NCBI GenBank assembly: GCA_035650595.1
Contig: DASRHE010000009.1
Location: 86,831-150,830 of the forward strand
Source of the DNA: Terracidiphilus sp.
GTDB lineage: Bacteria > Acidobacteriota > Terriglobia > Terriglobales > Acidobacteriaceae
Length of the DNA stretch: 64,000 bases
Direction of reading: 5' to 3'
Positions 1-38,444 of this stretch are shown here, piece after piece. A model generated the notes under the pieces. It was given only the letters and a program-made list of their open reading frames with translations, did no database searches and had not been told where the DNA came from. The first letter of the stretch is position 1. The number at the start of each line of letters is the position of its first letter. The position numbers and the translations under genes were made by a program.

Positions 1-289
1 CTCCACGATTCTCCGACCGGGTTTCCCGGCACGCTATAATCGATGCAGTGCCAAGTTCCCGCCATTCCGTTCCCCCCACTGCGCACATCGCTCGCGCAGC
101 AGCGCGTGCCGCTGCGGCGGCGGCTTCGGCCGCCTAGACACGTTTCTCCTCATCGCGACATTCGGGTATCAGCATAGGAACCGATCAGGGGTTTCTGTTC
201 CCTACCGGGGTCCCCTGCGAACGATCTTGGTTCGTAGGGGTGGTTGAACCCTGTTGCCTGTTCTCTGTTTTCTTTACACTGGAGTCATC

Positions 290-1477
290 ATGAACGAGTT
301 TTCGCGCATTCAACGCCTGCCCCCTTATGTCTTCAACATCACCGGTGAGATGAAGGTGAGCGCCCGGCGGCGCGGCGAAGACATTATCGACTTCGGCATG
401 GGCAATCCTGACGGCGCCACGCCCAAGCACATTGTGGACAAGATGATTGAAGCGGCGCTCAAGCCGGTCACGCACCGGTACTCTGTATCGAAGGGCCTGC
501 CGCGGCTGCGCAAGGCCATCTGCAACTGGTACAAGACGCGCTACAACGTCGATCTCGACTCCGAGTCCGAGGCCATCGTCACCATCGGCTCCAAAGAAGG
601 AATTGCGCACCTCTGCCTCGCCATCCTCGACTCGCATGATACCGTCATCGTTCCCAACCCCAGCTACCCGATCCACATCTACGGCCCGGTGATCGCCGGC
701 GCGCATGTGGTGAGTGTGCCGGTGCACGATCAGGGCCAGTTCCTAGCCGAGCTCGAACAGATCATCCCGCGCATGACTCCGCGTCCCAAAGCGCTCATCG
801 TCAACTTCCCTTCGAACCCGACGACGGAGTGTGTCGAGCTGCCCTTTCTTGCCCGGCTCGTCGAGATGGCCCGTGAGTACGGCTTCCATCTCATCCACGA
901 TCTCGCCTATGCCGACATCGCCTTCGACGGTTACAAGCCGCCGAGTGTGCTGGAAGTGCCGGGAGCGAAAGACGTCGCCGTCGAGTTTTTCACTCTGTCG
1001 AAGAGTTACAACATGCCCGGCTGGCGCATCGGCTTCATGGTCGGCAATCCCAAGCTGGTGGGCGCGCTGGCGCGGCTCAAGAGCTACTTCGACTACGGCA
1101 CCTTCACGCCCATCCAGGTAGCGGCTATCCACGCGCTCGAAGGACCGCAGGAGTGCGTGGGCCAAATCTGCGAGACCTACCGCAAGCGCCGCGATGTGCT
1201 CATCGAGGGCCTGAACAAGGCCGGCTGGCAGGTGGCCAGCCCCAAGGCCACGATGTTCGTGTGGGCGCGCATTCCCGAGGCCTACCGCGATCTCAAGTCG
1301 CTCGAGTTCTCCAAGCTGCTGCTGACCGATGCCAAGGTTGCTGTCTCTCCGGGTATCGGCTTCGGCGACTACGGCGATGGCCACGTCCGCTTTGCGCTGA
1401 TCGAGAACGAAGAGCGGACCCGGCAGGCCCTGCGCGGCATCCGGCAGATGCTGGCAAAAGGCGTGGTGCACGCGTAG
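290..1477 (+). CDS. alaC: PLP-dependent class I/II aminotransferase, AlaC-type (glutamate-pyruvate aminotransferase)
   Basis: The N-terminus MNEFSRIQRLPPYVFNITGEMKVSARRRGEDIIDFGMGNPDGATP is nearly collinear with E. coli AlaC as I recall it. SKxxxMxGWR Lys-PLP region present (LSKSYNMPGWRIG). ATG at 290 is preceded by GGAG at 282-285. The track ORF starts upstream at 254 on an alternative codon. Confidence 0.85.
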   Translation: MNEFSRIQRLPPYVFNITGEMKVSARRRGEDIIDFGMGNPDGATPKHIVDKMIEAALKPVTHRYSVSKGLPRLRKAICNWYKTRYNVDLDSESEAIVTIGSKEGIAHLCLAILDSHDTVIVPNPSYPIHIYGPVIAGAHVVSVPVHDQGQFLAELEQIIPRMTPRPKALIVNFPSNPTTECVELPFLARLVEMAREYGFHLIHDLAYADIAFDGYKPPSVLEVPGAKDVAVEFFTLSKSYNMPGWRIGFMVGNPKLVGALARLKSYFDYGTFTPIQVAAIHALEGPQECVGQICETYRKRRDVLIEGLNKAGWQVASPKATMFVWARIPEAYRDLKSLEFSKLLLTDAKVAVSPGIGFGDYGDGHVRFALIENEERTRQALRGIRQMLAKGVVHA

Positions 1478-1604
1478 ATACTGCGCGACCTCGAATTTCA
1501 CTGCGTGAGTTCGTGCTTTCCCGGGTCTCTGACCACCCCAGCGACGAGGACCTATCGCAGGACGGTGCGAGACCTTGGGCACACAGCTGTCACTTTCTGC
1601 ACGG

Positions 1605-3260
1605 TCAGTTATCGCCGTTAATCTCAGGAAAATTGGGCGGCTTAGGCGGAGTCACGCCCGTTTGCTGGCTGCACTTCTGATATTCATGACCCTGGAGGCA
1701 AAAACGGTTTTCAGTCCAAGTGTCTTTTTTGCCGCCTTTGCCATTATCTACATACTCGATCTGCTCTTCGTAAAGCGAAACATGCGACCAATCGGGTGCA
1801 ATCGCAAGGTCTCCACCGCTGGGTGAGTTATCGAAACCGCGGAACTCTTCATCGATCTGGAGCACGTTAGTAATTTCACCTGAGGGTGAGAGCGCATAGA
1901 TGTTAAAACCGAGCACTGGGCCGGCCCCGCATTGACCAGAGCCGAAGGGGTTTTGCGCACTCATGTCCGGGCCCGTGCGGATCAGGGTCCAGCCGTCCGC
2001 GAGCTGTTTCGTCTGAAAATATTTGCTGTCAACTATAAATTTTGTGGCCTTGAGGGCGGGGCCTTTGCGGTAAGCGAGGTACGGACCACAGATGTAGGCG
2101 CCATCCGGGAGTTGCTTCCAGAAAGATCTGTCAGTGGCGACGATGGGCGAAACGCCACTAGGAGTGTACATATATCCACCGGCTGGATTCTCGATGTCAT
2201 ACACGGTGTCAAGATAGAGCGGTCCCGCACCGGCCAGCGGAAAGTACCAGGCGGGAATGTCTTCACCCTCCAGATCGTGCTGCACCAGCGAAGCCTTGCA
2301 GGGAGTGATGGTGTGGACGCGCGGAGAATCTAGGCGCAAATGATTGAAGCTCGAAGAGCGGCCCCAAACACGATGCGGCGCAGTGGTGGAAAGAGCCCCC
2401 ATCTTCCTGCCTTCAGGCGCAGCAGCAAAAACATCGACCATCAGCCACAGGTCGCGGAGATCGAGCTGCTGCGTAGGCGGAAAGGCTGAATAAGGAATGA
2501 AAAAGTGGAACGTGTAACCAGTCTCAATAGACTGAGTCCTCGGATTGTCCGCTGCGTCACGGCCGACGGTCTCCTGCCTGTATTGGTCCTGGAAGAAGGA
2601 CCGCGTGCCGTCATTTTCTTTGGGCGCGAGTACTTCCGGTAGTTCGTTCGCAAAGTAGCCGGCCTTCAGGCTGGTGTAGGCGGTGGTAGCGAAATCTTCA
2701 AAGGAGTGGCCCTGGTTACCCACAGCCACTCCGGCCATTAGCCATTGCCGAACAAAGAGATGTTCCAGTTGCTTGCGGTAAGCGAGTTGTTGGTTATACC
2801 AGTTCACGCAATTCTTTCCGCTAAAGTTAGCCGAGCCGAAGTCATCGCTTAGCTGGGAACAGTCAGCAGCGGAGGCCAGCGTCTGCGTGCCGAACTGACT
2901 GCCCCAACCGACAGGCGGCAGAGATACGGTATTTGCAGCGGCAAGCCAGATCTCGACATGATCACCAGCCAGCATGTCCGACTTTTCGCGCGGCCAGTGT
3001 AGATCGTTGTCTGACGTATGTACGAGGACCGTGACACTGAGTCCCTTATCGCCGTAGCCGATCCAGACGCTGCCGGGATGCGCACCATCCCCTTGCGGAA
3101 TGAGTTGCATCGTGGCCTGAGTCGCGGGCACGACCGCATCGTAGAACCTGTCGGCAGCGTCGTCCTTGTGAACAGGAACAATGCCGCCGCTCTGCGCGCG
3201 TAGAAGAGACACAGCAACCAGAATGAGACATGGCAAGATTGAACGAGAAGGTATTCGCAT
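1605..3260 (-). CDS. hypothetical secreted protein (~550 aa), no family recognised
   Basis: Long ORF. The internal ATG at 3260 is preceded by AAGGAG and gives the signal-peptide-like N-terminus MRIPSRSILPCLILVAVSLLRAQS. No diagnostic catalytic motif seen. Confidence 0.6.
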   Translation of the reverse strand: MRIPSRSILPCLILVAVSLLRAQSGGIVPVHKDDAADRFYDAVVPATQATMQLIPQGDGAHPGSVWIGYGDKGLSVTVLVHTSDNDLHWPREKSDMLAGDHVEIWLAAANTVSLPPVGWGSQFGTQTLASAADCSQLSDDFGSANFSGKNCVNWYNQQLAYRKQLEHLFVRQWLMAGVAVGNQGHSFEDFATTAYTSLKAGYFANELPEVLAPKENDGTRSFFQDQYRQETVGRDAADNPRTQSIETGYTFHFFIPYSAFPPTQQLDLRDLWLMVDVFAAAPEGRKMGALSTTAPHRVWGRSSSFNHLRLDSPRVHTITPCKASLVQHDLEGEDIPAWYFPLAGAGPLYLDTVYDIENPAGGYMYTPSGVSPIVATDRSFWKQLPDGAYICGPYLAYRKGPALKATKFIVDSKYFQTKQLADGWTLIRTGPDMSAQNPFGSGQCGAGPVLGFNIYALSPSGEITNVLQIDEEFRGFDNSPSGGDLAIAPDWSHVSLYEEQIEYVDNGKGGKKDTWTENRFCLQGHEYQKCSQQTGVTPPKPPNFPEINGDN

Positions 3261-3623
3261 AACGCTCCTTGCGGATGCTTCGATAAAGATGCGGCGGTGA
3301 TGCAATCATCTCGTATCGCCGCCAGCCTTGTCAGGAGCAAGCGAATCTCCAGAAGCCATCCATAGAAAATAAATGGATTATGCCGCGGTTTGCTGCATCC
3401 TCGCGTGTCAACGATGGCACAGTGTGGAAACAGAGACACGCTACTTGAACCGGATGATGACGCAACCACAAAATCGCAGCTTTCCCATTTCCGAGCACGC
3501 ACAAGCATTGACTGAGTTCAATCTAGGCCCGATCGCGGTATGATCGATGCAAACTTCGGTCAACCAAAAACTGTGGGAAGGCGGCGACCGCCGCTTTCCA
3601 AAACTTTTTAAAGGATGGGCTCC

Positions 3624-4094
3624 ATGAAAGGAAATCCGAAGGTCATCGAACATTTGAACCAGGCATTGCGGGACGAGTTGACGGCCATCAACCAGTACTT
3701 TCTGCATGCAGAAATGTCGGAAAACTGGGGCTACAAAAAGTATTCGAAGTACATCAAGAAGCAGTCCATCGATGAGATGAAGCATGCCGAACTGCTGATG
3801 GAACGGATTCTCTTTCTGGATGGAACTCCGACAATGCAGCCTTTGGATCTGGCCATCGGCAAGTCGGTCAAGGACATGATCGAGTCGGACCTGAAGCTGG
3901 AGCACGAAGCGGTGGCCTCGTACAACGAGTCGATCAAGGTATGCGTGGAGAATGCGGACAACGGCTCGCGCGACCTTTTCGTGAAGCTGCTGCGAGACGA
4001 AGAGGGTCACGTCGACTGGCTCGAGGCGCAGGTCCACCAGATTCACGAGATCGGCTACGAGCGCTACCTGATTACCCAGACAGAAGAAGATTGA
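3624..4094 (+). CDS. bfr: bacterioferritin
   Basis: MKGNPKVIEHLNQALRDELTAINQYFLHAEM...DEMKHAELLMERILFLDG...LRDEEGHVDWLE is collinear with E. coli Bfr, including the heme-ligand Met in DEMKHA and the di-iron ExxH motifs. AAGGA lies 9 nt upstream of the ATG at 3624. Confidence 0.9.
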   Translation: MKGNPKVIEHLNQALRDELTAINQYFLHAEMSENWGYKKYSKYIKKQSIDEMKHAELLMERILFLDGTPTMQPLDLAIGKSVKDMIESDLKLEHEAVASYNESIKVCVENADNGSRDLFVKLLRDEEGHVDWLEAQVHQIHEIGYERYLITQTEED

Positions 4095-4103
4095 GCGCGC
4101 GGC

Positions 4104-4409
4104 CTACCTTCTCTGGATTTCGAGGTCGATGGGGGCGGGCGGCGGCTCGGCCGGCGAATTGATGCTGCCGCAGCTGGGATGGAGAACGAACCGCACGACA
4201 CCCTTGTCGTCCTCGAAGGCGAGGCCGTAGTCCGATCCGCCCTTGAACTCGCCCCAGGTCTTCGGAACGGCCATCACGCAGTTCGTAATGCCGGTGAAGC
4301 GCTCCTGCGCCTGTACTTTCATTTCTGGAGCGCTCATGCGGCCGACCACACCGCCGACCGCTCCTGCTAAAAGAAATATTCCGACCGCACCGAATTTAGC
4401 CCGTAACAT
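4104..4409 (-). CDS. small hypothetical membrane-anchored/secreted protein
   Basis: ORF with a hydrophobic N-terminal segment (MLRAKFGAVGIFLLAGAVGGVVG). No clear SD, so the start is uncertain (the track ORF extends to 4496 on TTG). Confidence 0.4.
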   Translation of the reverse strand: MLRAKFGAVGIFLLAGAVGGVVGRMSAPEMKVQAQERFTGITNCVMAVPKTWGEFKGGSDYGLAFEDDKGVVRFVLHPSCGSINSPAEPPPAPIDLEIQRR

Positions 4410-4848
4410 GGCCCGCAACGATTGCACGCTGACTCTCCTCAAGAAAAATGCTGACAAACCTATAGAGAGACGCAGGCCGGGCGAAGATTGCTCCAAAATT
4501 TGCTGATCGGAGTGAACGATCCGGCGTAGCGCGTGAAAAGGCTGTCGCAGATGTTGTGCATCTCGTGCAGGCCGAGATCGCCAAAAAGCGCCCCCTCACC
4601 TTCGCCACACTGAATCCGCAAGCTGCGAAATATGCGCCTACAAAGCGCTTTCTATCTTGATTTTGGTGATCTTACTCACTAACTCTTTACTTATTCGAGT
4701 AAGTTGCACCAATCCTGGTGATATCCACAAATTAATTCGTTTTTTACACTTGCATCCACAGATTGAACGGACGTACTGTCTCATTCAACTGATGACCCAG
4801 TAGGGAATCGGAATTGATGACCGGATCGGTTGGAAGATCAGGCATTTC

Positions 4849-5708
4849 AGCGCAAGCTAAGTGCATGAAAGGCCAACCGGACCAGGAAGTGCAATCGAAG
4901 GCGAGAGCCTAAGAGGAGCTTCTTGGTTAAGCCAGAGACAACAGAGCCGGTGAAAGCCGGTGATGAATTGACTGGCACGCAGCGTCGGTGAGCAGGCGGT
5001 GAAAACCGAAGGTTCATGGCGAGCGCATCCGGGGGTGGTACGGACGGTGGAAGCTGGAAACCTCATCGACGGTTCAACCGGCGATGGCAGGTCTAGGTGA
5101 AACCGAAGGTCCATCGCAGGCCGGGCCAGGGGCGAGAGAGTCGGTGAAAGCCGGAAGGATCAAAGCTGGATGTACCGGAGAAAACTAAGAGCCGGCGTAA
5201 GTCGGAAGTTAGTTTTCCCGGACGTGTTGAACGATCAAGATTCCGTGAGAGTCGAAGTTAGTCAGGCAGTGGAGAAGGAAGATACGGCATTTAGCGTAAG
5301 CTGAAGGTTAGTGATCCAAAGAAACTGACTGATTAGGCCCGAGGCGAAAGTTGAGGGCCAGCCGCCAGCGAAGGTTGAAGACTGAGCAACCGGTGAAAGC
5401 CGGAAGCTCTTTGTCAGCCGGACCGAAGGACGCAGGCGCCGATGAAAGTCGGAAGGCCGAGCCGACGGAGTAGCTGGAAGATAGCGCATCTGGCGCGAGC
5501 TGGAGGTTCTATCGGAGGCAGTGTCGAGCGGTGCGGCTTAGAGCGCAAGCTGTAAGTTCCGCCAATGGGCATTGCTGGAGGGCCTAACTTCTGACGAGAA
5601 TCGGGGGTAGCTTCAGCGGCGTGCGCTGGAAGGCGCGGCAGACGGTGCAAGCCGCAGGCCGACGCGCCAGCCGGGCATAAGGTGATGCAGACGGCGTAAG
5701 CCCGAAGC
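4849..5708 (+). repeat. degenerate tandem array, period ~49-50 nt (locally ~25 nt), of hairpin + (G)AAG(G) units
   Basis: Hairpins at 4849-4858, 4899-4910, 4948-4959, 4997-5008, 5045-5056, 5096-5104, 5142-5153, 5193-5204, 5244-5254, 5292-5303, 5343-5352, 5366-5377, 5391-5402, 5440-5451, 5466-5476, 5491-5502, 5542-5551, 5591-5604, 5617-5628, 5643-5654 and 5693-5702. Typical unit: CGGU-GAAA-GCCG-GAAGG. Confidence 0.75.
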
Positions 5709-5767
5709 TCATCGCGAGCCTAGACGCAGAAGCAAGTCCGATTGACCTGCATGGTCACCACATCTTA

Positions 5768-5804
5768 GACGCCAGGAGCTTCGGTTCCTGGCGTCTTCGT
5801 TTTT
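5768..5804 (+). terminator. rho-independent terminator
   Basis: GACGCCAGGAGC-UUCG-GUUCCUGGCGUC (12 bp including one G.U pair, UUCG tetraloop) followed by UUCGUUUUU. There is no U-tract on the opposite strand. Confidence 0.85.
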
Positions 5805-6118
5805 ACGGCACTTTTTCTTTCTGACATGGTTCTTGATGGGATGTGCGGAATTGCCCTGTAAGCACATGGGCTTCGAGATGGACCGGAAGGAAAAGTGTTT
5901 GCGGGTGAATTGCGCGTCGCCCCTATGGGGCTGGATGGATTTTGAGGGAACTGCAAACCCAGGGTTCCGTCCGCCATGGCGTATTCACCCTGGGGCTGTT
6001 GTCGATGGCTCCCTATGGTGGAGCAGGCTTACTCTCTTCCACAACTCTCTACGTTCAGCCTCCCTCCAGGAGCAGCTGTTTGCGACGATGCCGACTCGAT
6101 CTGGTCCGTGAACTCGCA

Positions 6119-6556
6119 CTACTTCGACGCAGTGGAAGCAGCGGTGGTTCCAGCCTTCGAAAAGCTGCGGATATAGATCACGAGGTTCCACACGTCGTCG
6201 TCTTTGGCGCGGGCCGGATCCTCAGGTGGCATCTTGTCTTTGCCGGTGCGGATCATGTTGAAGAGCTCGCCATCCTGCTTGTCGGCAAGCGCCTTCGGAT
6301 CGGTCCAGTCATCGAGAGTGAGACTCATGCTGGTGGCGAGGTCTGTCTTGCCGTTGCCGTTGTCACCGTGGCAGACGGCGCAATCGATCTTGTAGAGATT
6401 TTTGGCCTTGGTCTGCGACTCCGCTGTGGGCTTGACGGGGTTCTTGGCGGACGCAGCTACGGCGGCGGGCGCCTGGCCCGGTGGCAGCGCGGCGAGAACG
6501 GCAGGCGCAAGTGTAAGGGGAATCCCTGCGAAAAGAAGCAGAATCGGCTTCAGCAT
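6119..6556 (-). CDS. c-type cytochrome (class I, monoheme), secreted
   Basis: Signal peptide MLKPILLLFAGIPLTLAPAVLAA. Heme-binding CAVCH, with a downstream Met (KDKMPPE) as the likely sixth ligand. Confidence 0.8.
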   Translation of the reverse strand: MLKPILLLFAGIPLTLAPAVLAALPPGQAPAAVAASAKNPVKPTAESQTKAKNLYKIDCAVCHGDNGNGKTDLATSMSLTLDDWTDPKALADKQDGELFNMIRTGKDKMPPEDPARAKDDDVWNLVIYIRSFSKAGTTAASTASK

Positions 6557-6834
6557 GTGAGCCTCCTTCTACGGATCCTTTGGAGCAGCGGATGTCAAAT
6601 TACAGGCATCGCGTTGTGCCAGATTTTTTCTGCCACGAATTATAGGCCGATTTTCCCGGAAATGGACGTGCGCCGCAACACAAGGGTGCCCGGAGCCGCA
6701 CTGGCTGGTTCATTGAAAGGGATGGAGGGAGCTATGGAGTCGATCCCGTGCTTCTGCAAAAAGCGCAGAAGGACGGGGCACGGAGCTCAACTCGCGGGAG
6801 GTTTTCTAATTATCGAGGCCTTCTCAACCGGTCT

Positions 6835-8502
6835 TTAGTGCATGGCTTCAGCGCCCGGTCCTTGGCCGGGGCGATTCTTGCTCAGCAGGAAGGCCAGAAG
6901 AATCAGGACGATCGACATCCAGGATAGTTCCATGTAGACATCCTGGTAACCCTGCATCTGCGCCTGCTGATTGAGCTGGTTGTAGAGTGAGGCCAACGCC
7001 ATGCCGCCGCCGTTAGGTCCGCCGAACTGGCCACCTAAAAAGCCGGAGAGCGCTTGCAGATGCTGCTGGTAGCCGATTGCGCCCGGAACCATGTCCTGCT
7101 GCAGGTGCTGCTGGTGCCACATGGCCCGGCTGGTCACCTGCGCGTTGGTAATGGCAATCAGGATACTGCCGCCGATATTGCGGACGAAGTTGATGAGACC
7201 CGCAACCTGGTTGCTCTCCTCTTTGGGCATGCCTACGTACGCTGCGTTCGTGATGGAGATGAAGCAGAAGGGCAGCGGCAACATCTGGACGACGCGCAGC
7301 CACGAGGCTTCGGCAAAGCTCATCTGCAGGTTGGTGACAGCCGCAGCGTAACGAAAACTGAGCGTGAAGAGGATGAATCCGCAGACGGTGAGCGTGCGGG
7401 CCGAGATCTTGCTGGTGGCAAAACCGGCAAGGGGCATCATAATGAGCAGGGCGACGCCGCCTGCCGTAAGCGCGAGGCCCGCCGTGGTGGCGTTGTAGCC
7501 GAGCAACTGCTGCGTGAACTGCGGCTGCAGCACGGTGTTGGCGTTGAGCACGCCGCCCACGAGCATCATCAGAAAACAACAGATGGCGAAGTTCTTGAAC
7601 CGGAAGAGCCGTAGATTGATGAGCGGGTTTTTGATGTTCCACTCGCGCACAACCAGGCCCACCATGCCGAAGATGAACATGAAAGCGAAAAAGCGAATGA
7701 AGTTGGAGGCGAACCAGTCGTTTTCCTCGCCCTTGTCGAGCATGATCTGCAGGCCGCCCATGGCCAGAGTCAGGAAGGCGAGGCCAAGATAATCCATGTT
7801 GCGCAGGCGCGAGCGGTCGGGCTTGATCCACGGTGGATCTTCGACCAGACGAGTCACGAGGAAGAAGGCAAGAATGCCGACCGGAATATTGATGAAGAAG
7901 ATCCAGCGCCAGGAGAAGTTGTCGGTGATCCAGCCGCCGAGCGTGGGACCAATCGAGGGAGCGAGCACGGCGACCAGTCCATAGAGCGCGAAGGCCTGGC
8001 CGCGCTGATGCGGCTCAAAAGAGTCGGCCATAATGGCCTGGGCCATCGGCTGCATGCCGCCGCCGCCCGCTCCCTGGATGACGCGAAAGAGCAGCAGCAT
8101 GGGCAGCGTGGGCGCGGCGCCGCAAAGGAAGCTGGCAATGGTGAAGACGGTAATGCAAAAGACGAAGAAGTTGCGGCGGCCCATCAGGCTCGAAGCCCAG
8201 CCGCCCAGCGGCAGAACGATGGCGTTCGAGACCAGATAGCTGGTGAGCACCCACGTGCTCTGGTCGGTGCTGGCGCCCAGTGTGCCCGCGATGTGGGGCA
8301 GAGCCACGTTGGCGATGGAGGTGTCAAGCACCTCCATGAAAGCCGCCAGAGCCACCGTCATGGCAATCAGCCAGGGATTGACGCGCGGCTTCCAGCGCAC
8401 GCTCTCCGACGCATTGGGATTTTCCATATGCGCAGGCCTCTGCGGCGCTGGCTTGCCGGAGATGCCAACCGGGGCGGGCAATGCAGATGCGTTGTCGGAC
8501 AA
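6835..8502 (-). CDS. MFS transporter, DHA2 (EmrB/QacA) drug:H+ antiporter family, 14-TMS type
   Basis: LIAMTVALAAFMEVLDTSIANVALPHIAG...QGAGGGGMQP... are hallmarks of EmrB/QacA-type MFS. The TTG start at 8502 has GGGAGAAG upstream. No adjacent HlyD or TolC partner. Confidence 0.85.
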   Translation of the reverse strand: MSDNASALPAPVGISGKPAPQRPAHMENPNASESVRWKPRVNPWLIAMTVALAAFMEVLDTSIANVALPHIAGTLGASTDQSTWVLTSYLVSNAIVLPLGGWASSLMGRRNFFVFCITVFTIASFLCGAAPTLPMLLLFRVIQGAGGGGMQPMAQAIMADSFEPHQRGQAFALYGLVAVLAPSIGPTLGGWITDNFSWRWIFFINIPVGILAFFLVTRLVEDPPWIKPDRSRLRNMDYLGLAFLTLAMGGLQIMLDKGEENDWFASNFIRFFAFMFIFGMVGLVVREWNIKNPLINLRLFRFKNFAICCFLMMLVGGVLNANTVLQPQFTQQLLGYNATTAGLALTAGGVALLIMMPLAGFATSKISARTLTVCGFILFTLSFRYAAAVTNLQMSFAEASWLRVVQMLPLPFCFISITNAAYVGMPKEESNQVAGLINFVRNIGGSILIAITNAQVTSRAMWHQQHLQQDMVPGAIGYQQHLQALSGFLGGQFGGPNGGGMALASLYNQLNQQAQMQGYQDVYMELSWMSIVLILLAFLLSKNRPGQGPGAEAMH

Positions 8503-8584
8503 ACGTCTTCTCCCTTGGCTTTAAAAAATCTTTTCTTGGAATAACCGGGGAATACGGCACTGCGGCGCCGCATCGGCATCGGGC

Positions 8585-8607
8585 AAAAACTACGCTGTTC
8601 GGCGTAG
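8585..8607 (-). terminator. possible intrinsic terminator (minus strand)
   Basis: On the minus strand: CUACGC-CGAACA-GCGUAG followed by UUUUUGCCC. Confidence 0.4.
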
Positions 8608-8684
8608 CTGACCCGCTTCTCAATAGATTCACTTACCTGGAGCTGCGGTGCAAGGATTGGCGGTCTGGAAATGCGAAGGTGAAG

Positions 8685-8723
8685 AGAAAGAAAAATCCGG
8701 CAGCCTGTAACGGCCGCCGGATC
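8685..8723 (-). terminator. intrinsic terminator downstream of the VWA gene
   Basis: On the minus strand: AUCCGGCGGCC-GUUACA-GGCUGCCGGAU followed by UUUUUCUUUCUCUUC. It begins 15 nt after the stop at 8738. Confidence 0.6.
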
Positions 8724-8737
8724 TGTGAGGACGCGGT

Positions 8738-9712
8738 TTATTGTACTTCGGCCATCTCTGAGCCCATTACCAGCACCTGCTGCGGAGCATCGATCTTGGC
8801 TCCGTGCACGTCGGCTTTGAGCTTGAAACTGGCCACCTGCGATTTGCCCTTCGAAGGAGCCATAAAGCTCAGTTCGTACTGGTTATTAAGCCTGCGGTCG
8901 ATATCTTCAAAGTACGGCTGGAAACTGACCGGGTTGCCATAGCCCTGCCAGTAGTTGTTGCCACCTGTGGCCTGGGTGAGCTGAGTTAACAAATTCTGCC
9001 CGCTGTTGGTCGCGGCCATGCTGCGATCGACCCGGCCGATGTTCTGCCAGTAGATCGAGTAAACCACCAGCTGGGCCCGCACAGAGTCCTGGATGGCAGC
9101 CTGCAGATACGGATCATTCGGATCGTAGTGCCGCACGCCATCGTAGTAGTCGACGCCGTCGGTGATCATCACTACTTCACGCCGCGCCTGGCGATTGTTC
9201 GAGGGCCAATGATGCGCCAGGTCAGAGAGGCAGAAGTAGGGGCTGGCGCTCACGCCCGGAACACCGCCGGTGATGCGCAGGCCGCGCAGGGTCGCACTGC
9301 GGTCAGTCGTGAGCGGACCGGTAAGCGCTGCCTGGCCGTTCTGCATGTAGGCAAGCGTGGCACTGGTGTTGGCGGGCAGGCTTTGCACAAACCGGGTAAT
9401 CTCCTGCATCTGAGTGCCGAGACTTGTGCGCGCTGCGCCATCGATCAGGATCACCAGCTCAACCGGTGAATTCGGACCAAGCTGCTGCACACGCGTGATC
9501 TGTGTGTCCTTGCCGTCAACCTTTGCATTCAGATTCTGCGGCGAGAGATTCGGCGCAGACGCATTCTTGTCGGGGAGCACGGTAATGATGGCCTGTCCCT
9601 GGCCCTGCTGATTCTCTGAAGCTGCGAATGCGGGCGCTGCCGCAAGCAGTGATCCAGTCAGCAATCCAGACATTGCCAGAACTGCGAGTTTGTTTGATTG
9701 TTTCGAGATCAT
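8738..9712 (-). CDS. VWA domain-containing secreted protein (VWFA-related acidobacterial-type)
   Basis: The ATG at 9712 is preceded by AGGAGG. Signal peptide MISKQSNKLAVLAMSGLLTGSLLAAAPAFA. VELVILIDGAARTS... is a MIDAS-like start of a VWA fold. The overall architecture resembles the TIGR03436-type family. The family name is from memory and was not searched. Confidence 0.7.
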   Translation of the reverse strand: MISKQSNKLAVLAMSGLLTGSLLAAAPAFAASENQQGQGQAIITVLPDKNASAPNLSPQNLNAKVDGKDTQITRVQQLGPNSPVELVILIDGAARTSLGTQMQEITRFVQSLPANTSATLAYMQNGQAALTGPLTTDRSATLRGLRITGGVPGVSASPYFCLSDLAHHWPSNNRQARREVVMITDGVDYYDGVRHYDPNDPYLQAAIQDSVRAQLVVYSIYWQNIGRVDRSMAATNSGQNLLTQLTQATGGNNYWQGYGNPVSFQPYFEDIDRRLNNQYELSFMAPSKGKSQVASFKLKADVHGAKIDAPQQVLVMGSEMAEVQ

Positions 9713-9905
9713 GGGGTTTTCCTCCTTGAGGCGCCCGCGCGTAAACAGCAGCCGCGAGCCCAAATCGCCTCGACTGCATTTCTTTAGATGAAAGAACAGG
9801 GGGATCGGCAACAAGTTGCGCGAGCAGATCAAGAAAGTCTATGAGCTGACGAAAAAAGAACAGAATTTGCAATTTAGCGGGTATTTGATGAGGAACCGGT
9901 GACAA

Positions 9906-15479: not shown

Positions 15480-15556
<77 letters not shown>

Positions 15557-38368: not shown

Positions 38369-38444
38369 TGGTGGACGCGGTAGGAATCGAACCTACAACC
38401 TGTCGGTTAAGAGCCGAATGCTCTGCCAGTTGAGCTACGCGTCC
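38369..38444 (-). tRNA. tRNA-Lys (CUU), CCA encoded
   Basis: The reverse complement is GGACGCGTAGCTCAACTGGCAGAGCATTCGGCTCTTAACCGACAGGTTGTAGGTTCGATTCCTACCGCGTCCACCA. It folds as a cloverleaf with anticodon loop CU-CUU-AA and T-arm GUAGG-UUCGAUU-CCUAC. Confidence 0.9.

Follow-up and report, generated by a model that had tools for sequence, protein, structure and literature searches.

Locus and RNA gene

Near the start of a 64,000-nucleotide (nt) stretch of the genome of Terracidiphilus sp. (Acidobacteriaceae; GenBank assembly GCA_035650595.1, contig DASRHE010000009.1, positions 86,831 to 150,830 of the forward strand; hereafter the window), an array of short hairpins sits inside a 1.6-kb gap that is free of protein-coding genes. 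The gap is flanked by a bacterioferritin gene (3615-4094, + strand) and, on the other side, by a convergent cytochrome c gene (6119-6556, - strand), beyond which lies a gene for an MFS transporter (6835-8502, - strand). A small hypothetical open reading frame (ORF) of 105-107 amino acids (aa) without a Pfam family (4104-4421, - strand) is oriented divergently to the array; it occurs in the window's own genome and is absent beside the array in the other orthologs.

Comparison among orthologs shows that the array is the body of a predicted stand-alone structured noncoding RNA (ncRNA) gene of ~1 kb. The whole predicted RNA spans ~1020 nt (4783-5805, + strand), and orthologs align with it end to end, from leader to terminator. 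An earlier, sequence-only reading had described the hairpins between 4849 and 5708; the gene extends beyond these limits and is preceded by upstream control elements at 4689-4779. There is no + strand ORF of at least 60 aa in the RNA gene region, the antisense ORFs match no Pfam family and do not stay intact in orthologs, and insertions and deletions of modules measure 49 nt, which is not a multiple of three, in agreement with the earlier view that selection does not act on a reading frame here. The + strand is purine-rich (GC skew, +0.28; AT skew, about +0.25) and its predicted fold is the more stable of the two strands (-437 kcal/mol, z = -11.2, compared with -342 kcal/mol, z = -5.2, for the - strand). 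A predicted promoter and terminator of its own on one strand, compensatory changes in structure and no conserved frame together characterize the locus as a probable noncoding gene.

Upstream of the RNA, a block of TTGCACCAATCCTGGTGATATCCACAAAT (4704-4732, + strand), also written TTGCACCAAYCCTGGTGATATYCACAAWT, is common to nine genome orthologs, in which it is the same save for two pyrimidine (Y) positions. Within it, the core TGCACCA-ATCC-TGGTGAT (4705-4722) is similar to NtrC-type enhancer sites, whose enterobacterial consensus is TGCACCAnnnTGGTGCA (PMC8743547; PMC4987338), though the resemblance is only a lead since the spacer in the core is one base longer than in that enterobacterial consensus. 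Directly upstream of the block, and in the window's clade only, lies the palindrome ACTTA-N6-TAAGT (4689-4704), a candidate operator in which the half-sites are kept among close orthologs and the 6-nt spacer varies (TTCGAG, TTTGGC, TCGCGC); it is probably a second operator. Downstream of the block is a predicted sigma-70-type promoter (4750-4779, + strand) with a -35 hexamer TTGCAT at 4750-4755, an 18-nt spacer and a -10 hexamer TACTGT at 4774-4779. A simple consensus promoter scan did not call this promoter at 4750-4779; across nine orthologs, TTGCAT and TA(C/A/G)T(G/C)T are conserved and the 18-nt spacer between them is variable, as would be expected if a sigma-70-type promoter lay here with a regulator site upstream of it. 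Transcription would start at ~4783-4787, placing the invariant NtrC-site-like palindrome ~50-80 bp upstream of the start, and a dedicated regulator therefore probably controls expression. A sigma-54 promoter was considered and rejected, as the promoter alignment has no GG/GC -24/-12 arrangement adjoining the NtrC-like site. A direct repeat, ATCCACA(A/G)AT, occurs at 4723-4732 and 4754-4763, 31 bp apart, the second copy overlapping the final two bases of the -35 hexamer.

At the other end, a terminator scan identified an intrinsic terminator (5767-5805, + strand) in which a 13-bp stem, 8 pairs of it G-C, is capped by a UUCG loop and accompanied by a U-tract. The terminator is conserved with compensatory changes in all orthologs, and a strong one is found on the + strand only.

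Hairpin array

When region 4780-5770 was scanned for G-N-R-A loops with a closing stem of three or more pairs, 19 hairpins were recovered on the + strand, of 133 on the + strand of the whole 64-kb window, and none on the - strand of that region. Dinucleotide-preserving shuffles (n = 2000) give far fewer (2.95±1.70; maximum, 10), a ~6-fold excess, and the excess persists for stems of at least four pairs (13 compared with 1.05±1.0). The hairpins lie where the sequence-only reading had placed them, at steps of 46-51 nt, the stems it listed (CGGU/GCCG, CGGC/GUCG, UAGC/GCUG and the rest) are correct as given, and the RNA in the window comprises about 18 tandem modules. Its description of a GNRA loop throughout holds at 15 of the 18 main positions (loops at 4852, 4903, 4952, 5001, 5049, 5146, 5197, 5296, 5346, 5395, 5444, 5495, 5545, 5647 and 5696) and fails at 5100 (GGU-GAA-ACC), at 5248, which is irregular, and at 5595, a CGAGAA hexaloop.

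Reading along the + strand, the scan finds a first small hairpin (GGUU-GGAA-GAUC, 4828-4839), after which the module tips, identified by the scan and by reading, begin with AGC-GCAA-GCU (4849-4858), AGGC-GAGA-GCCU (4899-4910; its module is absent in the ortholog L060), GCCGGU-GAAA-GCCGGU (4946-4961), CGGU-GAAA-ACCG followed by AAGG (4997-5008) and CGGU-GGAA-GCUG (5045-5056). A spacer hairpin, CAUCGACGGU-UCA-ACCGGCGAUG (5064-5086), which had been pointed out from the sequence, is indeed present and is nearly invariant in close orthologs. It is followed by an irregular tip found by reading, GGU-GAA-ACC and then GAAGG (5096-5104), by UCGGU-GAAA-GCCGG and then AAGG (5141-5154), and by CCGGC-GUAA-GUCGG (5192-5205), which is set in an outer stem of GAAAACUAA/UUAGUUUUC with a GAG/AAG internal loop. 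The irregular module CCGUGAGAGUCG, then AAG (5244-5255), is invariant in close orthologs.

The second half of the array continues with the tips UUUAGC-GUAA-GCUGAA (5290-5305) and GGC-GAAA-GUU (5343-5352), the latter within GGCCC/GGGCC with a GA/GA internal loop, CCGGU-GAAA-GCCGG and then AAG (5390-5403), CCGAU-GAAA-GUCGG and then AAGG (5439-5452), UCUGGC-GCGA-GCUGGA (5489-5504; outer stem GAUAG/CUAUC) and AGC-GCAA-GCU (5542-5551; outer stem GCGG/CCGC). An irregular module with a hexaloop, CUGA-CGAGAA-UCGG, was read at 5592-5605, and the last two tips are CGGU-GCAA-GCCG (5643-5654) and GGC-GUAA-GCC (5693-5702). Between the main positions lie half-step hairpins, namely CAGC-GAAG-GUUG (5366-5377) and CGG-AGUAG-CUG followed by GAAGAU (5466-5476), both found by reading, and UGCGCU-GGAA-GGCGCG (5622-5637), found by the scan. 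Half-step copies had been proposed before, and they are present, but their loops (GAAG, AGUAG and GUGC/GGAA) do not keep the GNRA pattern.

Fourier analysis of base composition gave a top peak at 24.5 nt with a power not above that of control stretches, contrary to the suggestion that it would quantify the repeat. The period of ~49 nt thus lies in the placement of hairpins and not in composition, and the Fourier test was replaced by statistics of loop spacing and length quantisation (below).

Module anatomy

Module structure was probed with regular expressions, a pairing matrix and ortholog tests, using 562 GNRA-capped modules, each with a stem of 4 bp or more, drawn from 55 non-redundant RNAs. 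The loops of these modules are GCAA (284), GAAA (101), GCGA (67), GAGA (37), GUAA (28), GGAA (25) and GUGA (20). Loop-to-loop spacing is sharply defined, with 49 nt in 120 cases, 50 nt in 83, 51 nt in 42 and 48 nt in 35 (203 steps of 49-50 nt across the 55 RNAs) and a harmonic near 98 nt. A matrix of pairing excess resolves a symmetric compound hairpin: positions ±1 to ±5 or 6 form the inner stem, ±6/7 a small internal loop, often G·A/A·G, and ±8 to ±11 or 12 the outer stem. Each module is composed of a YCGGARG linker, an outer stem whose sequence is free, a small internal loop of purines (tandem G·A type), an inner stem of 4-6 bp (CGGN/NCCG) and the GNRA tetraloop, with a 49-mer consensus of GGAUGcaAGAUuCGGG-GCAA-CCCGGAGAuUCAuC-GcCGGCa..GCCGGAG.

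The spacers had been described as lacking conserved sequence, a statement that does not survive the family-wide comparison, in which YCGGARG recurs in the spacers 6-fold over shuffles. The linker is able to form a CCGGC-NNN-GCCGG mini-hairpin, in which YCGGARG is often embedded, and this explains the half-step copies. Regular expressions for the module matched 603 times inside arrays and once outside them in 1.77 Mb of Acidobacteriaceae locus DNA (both strands), so the module is exclusive to this RNA.

Two loci depart from the common form. A family member of 618 nt (L107:6888-7505) carries UGAA tetraloops or hexaloops in place of GNRA and retains the 3' GUCGGA(A)G strand. A metagenome contig (L063:1366-2400; Ga0181531_10017585) has two copies of the promoter plus leader 600 nt apart; the first gives a short RNA of ~320 nt with its own terminator, in which YCGGARGAU elements are numerous and GNRA hairpins few, the second seems to stop at a terminator as well, and the two look like tandem short paralogs of the family.

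Global fold

In the minimum free energy (MFE) fold, the leader strand UGAUGACC..GUAGG.AAUCGGA (4790-4816) pairs with UCCGAUU.GACCUGC.AUGGUCACCA (5733-5760), located just before the terminator, to form a helix that closes the array. This closing helix has 22 pairs, of which 98.5% are paired in six orthologs; its GUAG/CUGC and UCGG/CCGA segments persist in 46 diverse members, among which there is one clearly compensatory pair (CG, 19; UA, 13; UG, 10). An RNAalifold consensus of 11 sequences from a second clade has another long-range helix and linker-to-linker pairs that cross modules. Given the closing helix together with the long-range helix and linker pairs of the second clade, the modelled molecule is a closed ring bearing hairpin modules. 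The leader contains CUGAUGA, and a hammerhead was tried as a candidate and rejected: the core positions are variable, with UUGGUGA in other clades, and none of the hammerhead models of Rfam gives a match.

Selection on structure and evolution of the array

The sequence-only reading had attributed the array to selection on RNA structure, and this attribution is supported by double changes in orthologs, pairing of the outer stem, G-U pairs and the confinement of GNRA loops to a single strand. When the MFE structure of the window RNA is imposed on six close orthologs, 88.5% of pairs can form, compared with 25-40% when the partners are slid, and 44 pairs change on both sides, compared with 24.3±3.3 in shuffles (reached by 0 of 500) and 11-21 with slid partners. 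RNAalifold finds compensatory changes in 67 of 166 pairs among nine orthologs and in 76 of 259 pairs among 11 orthologs of the second clade. Across the 562 modules, the outer stem (±8-11), the positions of which played no part in module selection, is 62.3% paired compared with 43.4±0.8% after swapping of 3' halves between modules (z = 24.7), and 265 of 2248 inner-stem pairs are G-U.

The array grows and shrinks by whole modules. The close ortholog L060 (3125-4089; 77% identity) lacks exactly one module, corresponding to 4880-4928 of the window, another clade has three extra modules, and the family as a whole ranges over 576-1168 nt with roughly 10-22 modules. The 55 RNAs come in lengths quantised by ~49 nt (Rayleigh R = 0.49, compared with 0.377 as the 99th percentile for random lengths). 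The modules are not recent DNA duplications, a possibility raised earlier, as Tandem Repeats Finder sees no repeat in the array, from which it follows that the modules are diverged at the DNA level.

The loop-closing pair is pyrimidine-purine (Y-R) in every module of 22 RNAs, with G-C never found there; in 27 other RNAs, 80% or more of the modules have G-C, and only two RNAs are intermediate. The preferred loop likewise differs from array to array, some being GAAA-rich and others GCAA-rich. This uniformity of closing pair and loop preference within each array indicates that the modules of one RNA evolve in concert, as would be produced by a common trans-acting reader or by frequent unequal recombination. 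It also means that copy-to-copy differences within one array are not independent compensatory events.

Distribution and novelty

Syntenic loci in related genomes were reached through cytochrome c homologs, and all have the same dense, strand-specific hairpin array, aligning from the upstream block to the terminator. Using the upstream block as a pattern against one genome per GTDB species returned 10 matches, of which seven are metagenome-assembled genomes of Acidobacteriaceae (Terracidiphilus spp. and relatives) that carry the array at one locus each. The remaining three, in Ignavibacterium, Granulicella and Paenibacillus, are without an array and were rejected as chance matches. A pattern of promoter plus leader was found on at least 119 metagenome contigs or loci, and among the metagenome matches listed there are 67 complete RNAs of 576-1168 nt in which hairpin number scales with length. 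Viral contigs (IMG/VR) gave no match to this promoter-plus-leader pattern. A three-part module pattern gave 22 matches in IMG/VR and these were set aside, the two loci richest in module-like matches (L020 and L022) being unrelated to the array, one a coding repeat and the other a tandem DNA repeat, and the others having background hairpin density only. Patterns of the module alone are too unspecific for large collections and the genome and metagenome scans were therefore built on promoter and leader; members with other promoters are missed by such scans and the true range of the family may be wider.

Comparison with Rfam 15, which includes CsrB, RsmX/Y/Z, OLE, GOLLD, ROOL, HEARO, raiA, Acido-1 and Acido-Lenti-1, gave nothing relevant at the gathering score in the window or at E<=10 in 4400-6000, and no matches in ten further loci. 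Two tRNA genes (15480-15553, + strand; 38372-38444, - strand) are the sole Rfam matches in the window. Full-text literature searches turned up no earlier description of this RNA. On this comparative evidence, the predicted RNA is the first member of a hitherto undescribed family of modular hairpin-array RNAs, confined to the Acidobacteriaceae as far as searched.

Possible functions

The function that we tentatively favour, with confidence short of even, is that of a multivalent decoy or scaffold, itself regulated, for some factor with affinity for the hairpin modules. The RNA would be transcribed from the conserved sigma-70-like promoter, probably under a dedicated regulator, and would present many near-identical hairpin modules, so that it would work through valency. 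By binding to the modules, multiple copies of a single trans-acting factor would be titrated or organised; the likeliest such factor is a protein that recognises the GNRA tip, the closing pair and the 3' purines. A decoy or scaffold is favoured because the valency varies freely and the modules track one another, and because a strongly conserved regulatory region is dedicated to the gene; by analogy, known tandem-module RNAs may be taken as a guide to this one. CsrB/RsmZ, CrcZ and the Xist A-repeats all work through many copies of a binding module.

Several observations weigh against a decoy or scaffold. The ~1-kb transcript is itself a prediction from the DNA sequence. Isolated copies of the module, which might mark neighbouring mRNAs as targets, amount to the single match outside arrays (compared with 603 inside) in the 1.77 Mb searched on both strands, and no natural target to mimic is therefore visible in this sample, which is a small part of any genome. 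Among the flanking ORFs of 128 loci, there is no linkage to a gene for an RNA-binding protein or nuclease. Unequal recombination or gene conversion alone can yield concerted evolution. Finally, L107 and L063 have few or no GNRA loops and yet keep YCGGARG, so that something other than the tetraloop may be what is recognised.

A further proposal, which we regard as less likely than not but as having a substantial chance, is a 'beads-on-a-ring' in which 10-22 GNRA-capped modules, closed into a ring, would self-assemble into a regular nanostructure or would polymerise a protein along the RNA at a 49-nt pitch under an NtrC-like switch, in the Acidobacteriaceae of acidic soil and peat; such an RNA would be unrelated to Csr/Rsm titration and categorically new. 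Unlikely, in our view, is a self-organising architectural RNA, in which ~18 GNRA loops would dock in the minor grooves of C-G-rich inner stems (CCGG/CCGG) of the same or other molecules. The array would then pack into a compact particle or lattice, whose geometry would demand the 49-50-nt spacing. In tetraloop-helix contacts, GNRA loops classically meet tandem C-G pairs, and defined assemblies are formed by the large bacterial RNAs ROOL, GOLLD and OLE. The very sharp 49-50-nt spacing, the presence of both GNRA loops and C-G-rich stems, the tandem G·A internal loops of the consensus module and the conserved closing helix, second long-range helix and cross-module linker pairing (the last two in the 11-sequence consensus) all fit such packing, but a two-fold variation in module number is hard to square with one tertiary fold, members such as L107 have UGAA loops or hexaloops instead of GNRA, and neither an 11-nt receptor motif nor a conserved unique junction was found in the array.

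The constant length of the tandem modules and the conserved purine element YCGGARG at every module boundary, which could be a cleavage site, would suit a precursor that an endoribonuclease cuts into ~18 separate hairpin RNAs of ~50 nt, in the manner of CRISPR pre-crRNA or ToxI arrays. We consider this improbable: the array is followed by a terminator and then by the convergent cytochrome c and MFS transporter genes, with no nuclease or toxin gene in the operon and no toxin endoribonuclease gene downstream on the same strand. The modules are also without a variable 'guide' part besides their self-pairing stems, and the conserved helix that joins the ends of the full-length RNA suggests that the intact molecule matters.

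That the RNA is strictly a CsrA/RsmA sponge, its GGA elements (CCGGAAG, CGAAGGAU) binding CsrA dimers and so relieving repression of mRNAs, is very improbable. The YCGGARG and GGARGAU elements do occur at every half-module, the gene is stand-alone and regulated as are csrB and rsmZ, and CsrA has been reported together with FliW from Acidobacteria (PMC4682653). Against this, GGA is only 1.16-fold and the CsrA-preferred ARGGA 0.81-fold over dinucleotide shuffles, so that there is no enrichment of GGA to support a CsrA-type sponge. The loops have the GNRA form and not ANGGA, most of the GGA triplets have their two G's inside stems, and no CsrB or Rsm model of Rfam matches. In the promoter alignment, there is no GacA/UvrY box (TGTAAG-N6-CTTACA); TGCACCA-N4-TGGTGAT and ACTTA-N6-TAAGT stand there instead. 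None of csrA, fliW and hfq was found in ~0.95 Mb of collected locus DNA (CsrA/FliW by tblastn), a tiny sample.

We give hardly any credence to an element that acts at the DNA level, whether as a satellite-like repeat of constant size that binds a protein, a cluster of palindromes of the repetitive extragenic palindromic (REP) or miniature inverted-repeat transposable element (MITE) kind, or a decayed CRISPR array. It would account for a constant unit of ~49 nt with units evolving in concert, and published tandem repeats of a constant 52 nt remain unexplained (PMC8161180), but the array is strongly asymmetric between strands (19 GNRA hairpins compared with none, and the purine skew of +0.28/+0.25), its stems have frequent G-U pairs and compensatory changes that keep the pairing, and its copies are too diverged for Tandem Repeats Finder. 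It occupies a single locus per genome with its own predicted promoter and terminator. Identical repeats and spacers are lacking in the array, and no cas genes are present among the Pfam-scanned flanking genes (254-9832) or the called genes of orthologous loci.

Comparison with known RNAs

The family is assigned to the tandem-module ncRNAs. As with CsrB/CsrC and RsmX/Y/Z of the Gammaproteobacteria and CrcZ, it is a stand-alone, regulated ncRNA with many repeated short modules, homologs that vary in module number and a regulator site upstream of the promoter; those RNAs act through valency, which is proposed only for the present one. Compared with the Csr/Rsm RNAs, it is 3-10 times longer, comes from a different phylum and is built of 49-nt compound hairpins capped by GNRA, whereas theirs are hairpins with GGA in the loop. 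With OLE, GOLLD, ROOL, HEARO and raiA it shares a size of 0.6-1.2 kb, an extensive conserved structure with covariation, a narrow lineage range and no obvious functional link to an operon. Their architectures, however, are unique and non-repetitive, whereas nearly all of this RNA is a tandem array of one module, with variation in copy number and concerted evolution.

Tandem RNA repeats of constant length are also known from type III toxin-antitoxin arrays (ToxI, CptI, TenpI), which like this array lie in one precursor. Theirs are 2-6 near-identical repeats of 34-45 nt, whereas here there are 10-22 diverged modules of 49 nt; their toxin gene is directly downstream and the toxin processes the array, whereas here a terminator and the convergent cytochrome c gene follow. 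The constant-size 52-nt tandem repeats of Bacillus/Paenibacillus, for which a sponge RNA or protein-binding array has been suggested (Subirana & Messeguer, PMC8161180), are likewise non-coding, with constant units of ~50 nt whose sequence differs between species. Those repeats occupy many loci per genome with near-identical copies and are poorly conserved between strains, whereas here one orthologous locus has a promoter, closing helix and terminator, and its modules are diverged and its structure conserved. With REP elements, bacterial interspersed mosaic elements (BIME) or satellite-like repeats the array shares a constant unit length, but it has one locus per genome and diverged copies in place of their many loci and near-identical copies. 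Tandem hairpin modules spaced at ~50 nt also recall the Xist A-repeat and NORAD units, which recruit multiple copies of one protein, but these are eukaryotic and unrelated in sequence, and the likeness is one of analogy only.

No described family with a closed ring of equal-length GNRA modules was found. Large, highly structured bacterial ncRNAs are rare, and OLE, GOLLD, ROOL and raiA each opened a line of work, while to our knowledge there has been little work on regulatory RNA in the Acidobacteriaceae. The family offers a natural system in which to study the influence of valency, module pitch and concerted evolution on an RNA. If the decoy reading is true, it would point to an unknown post-transcriptional regulator in the Acidobacteria, and the invariant NtrC-site-like element is a direct experimental handle on the timing of RNA synthesis.

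Flanking sequence

Among the flanking ORFs of 128 loci, the only conserved feature is chromosomal synteny, with an aminotransferase, the cytochrome c and the MFS transporter. Between the terminator and the cytochrome c gene of the window (5903-5994) there are short inverted repeats, GGGTGAAT/ATTCACCC and CCCAGGGT/ACCCTGGG, and a stretch that resembles them occurs at the same position in the ortholog L042.

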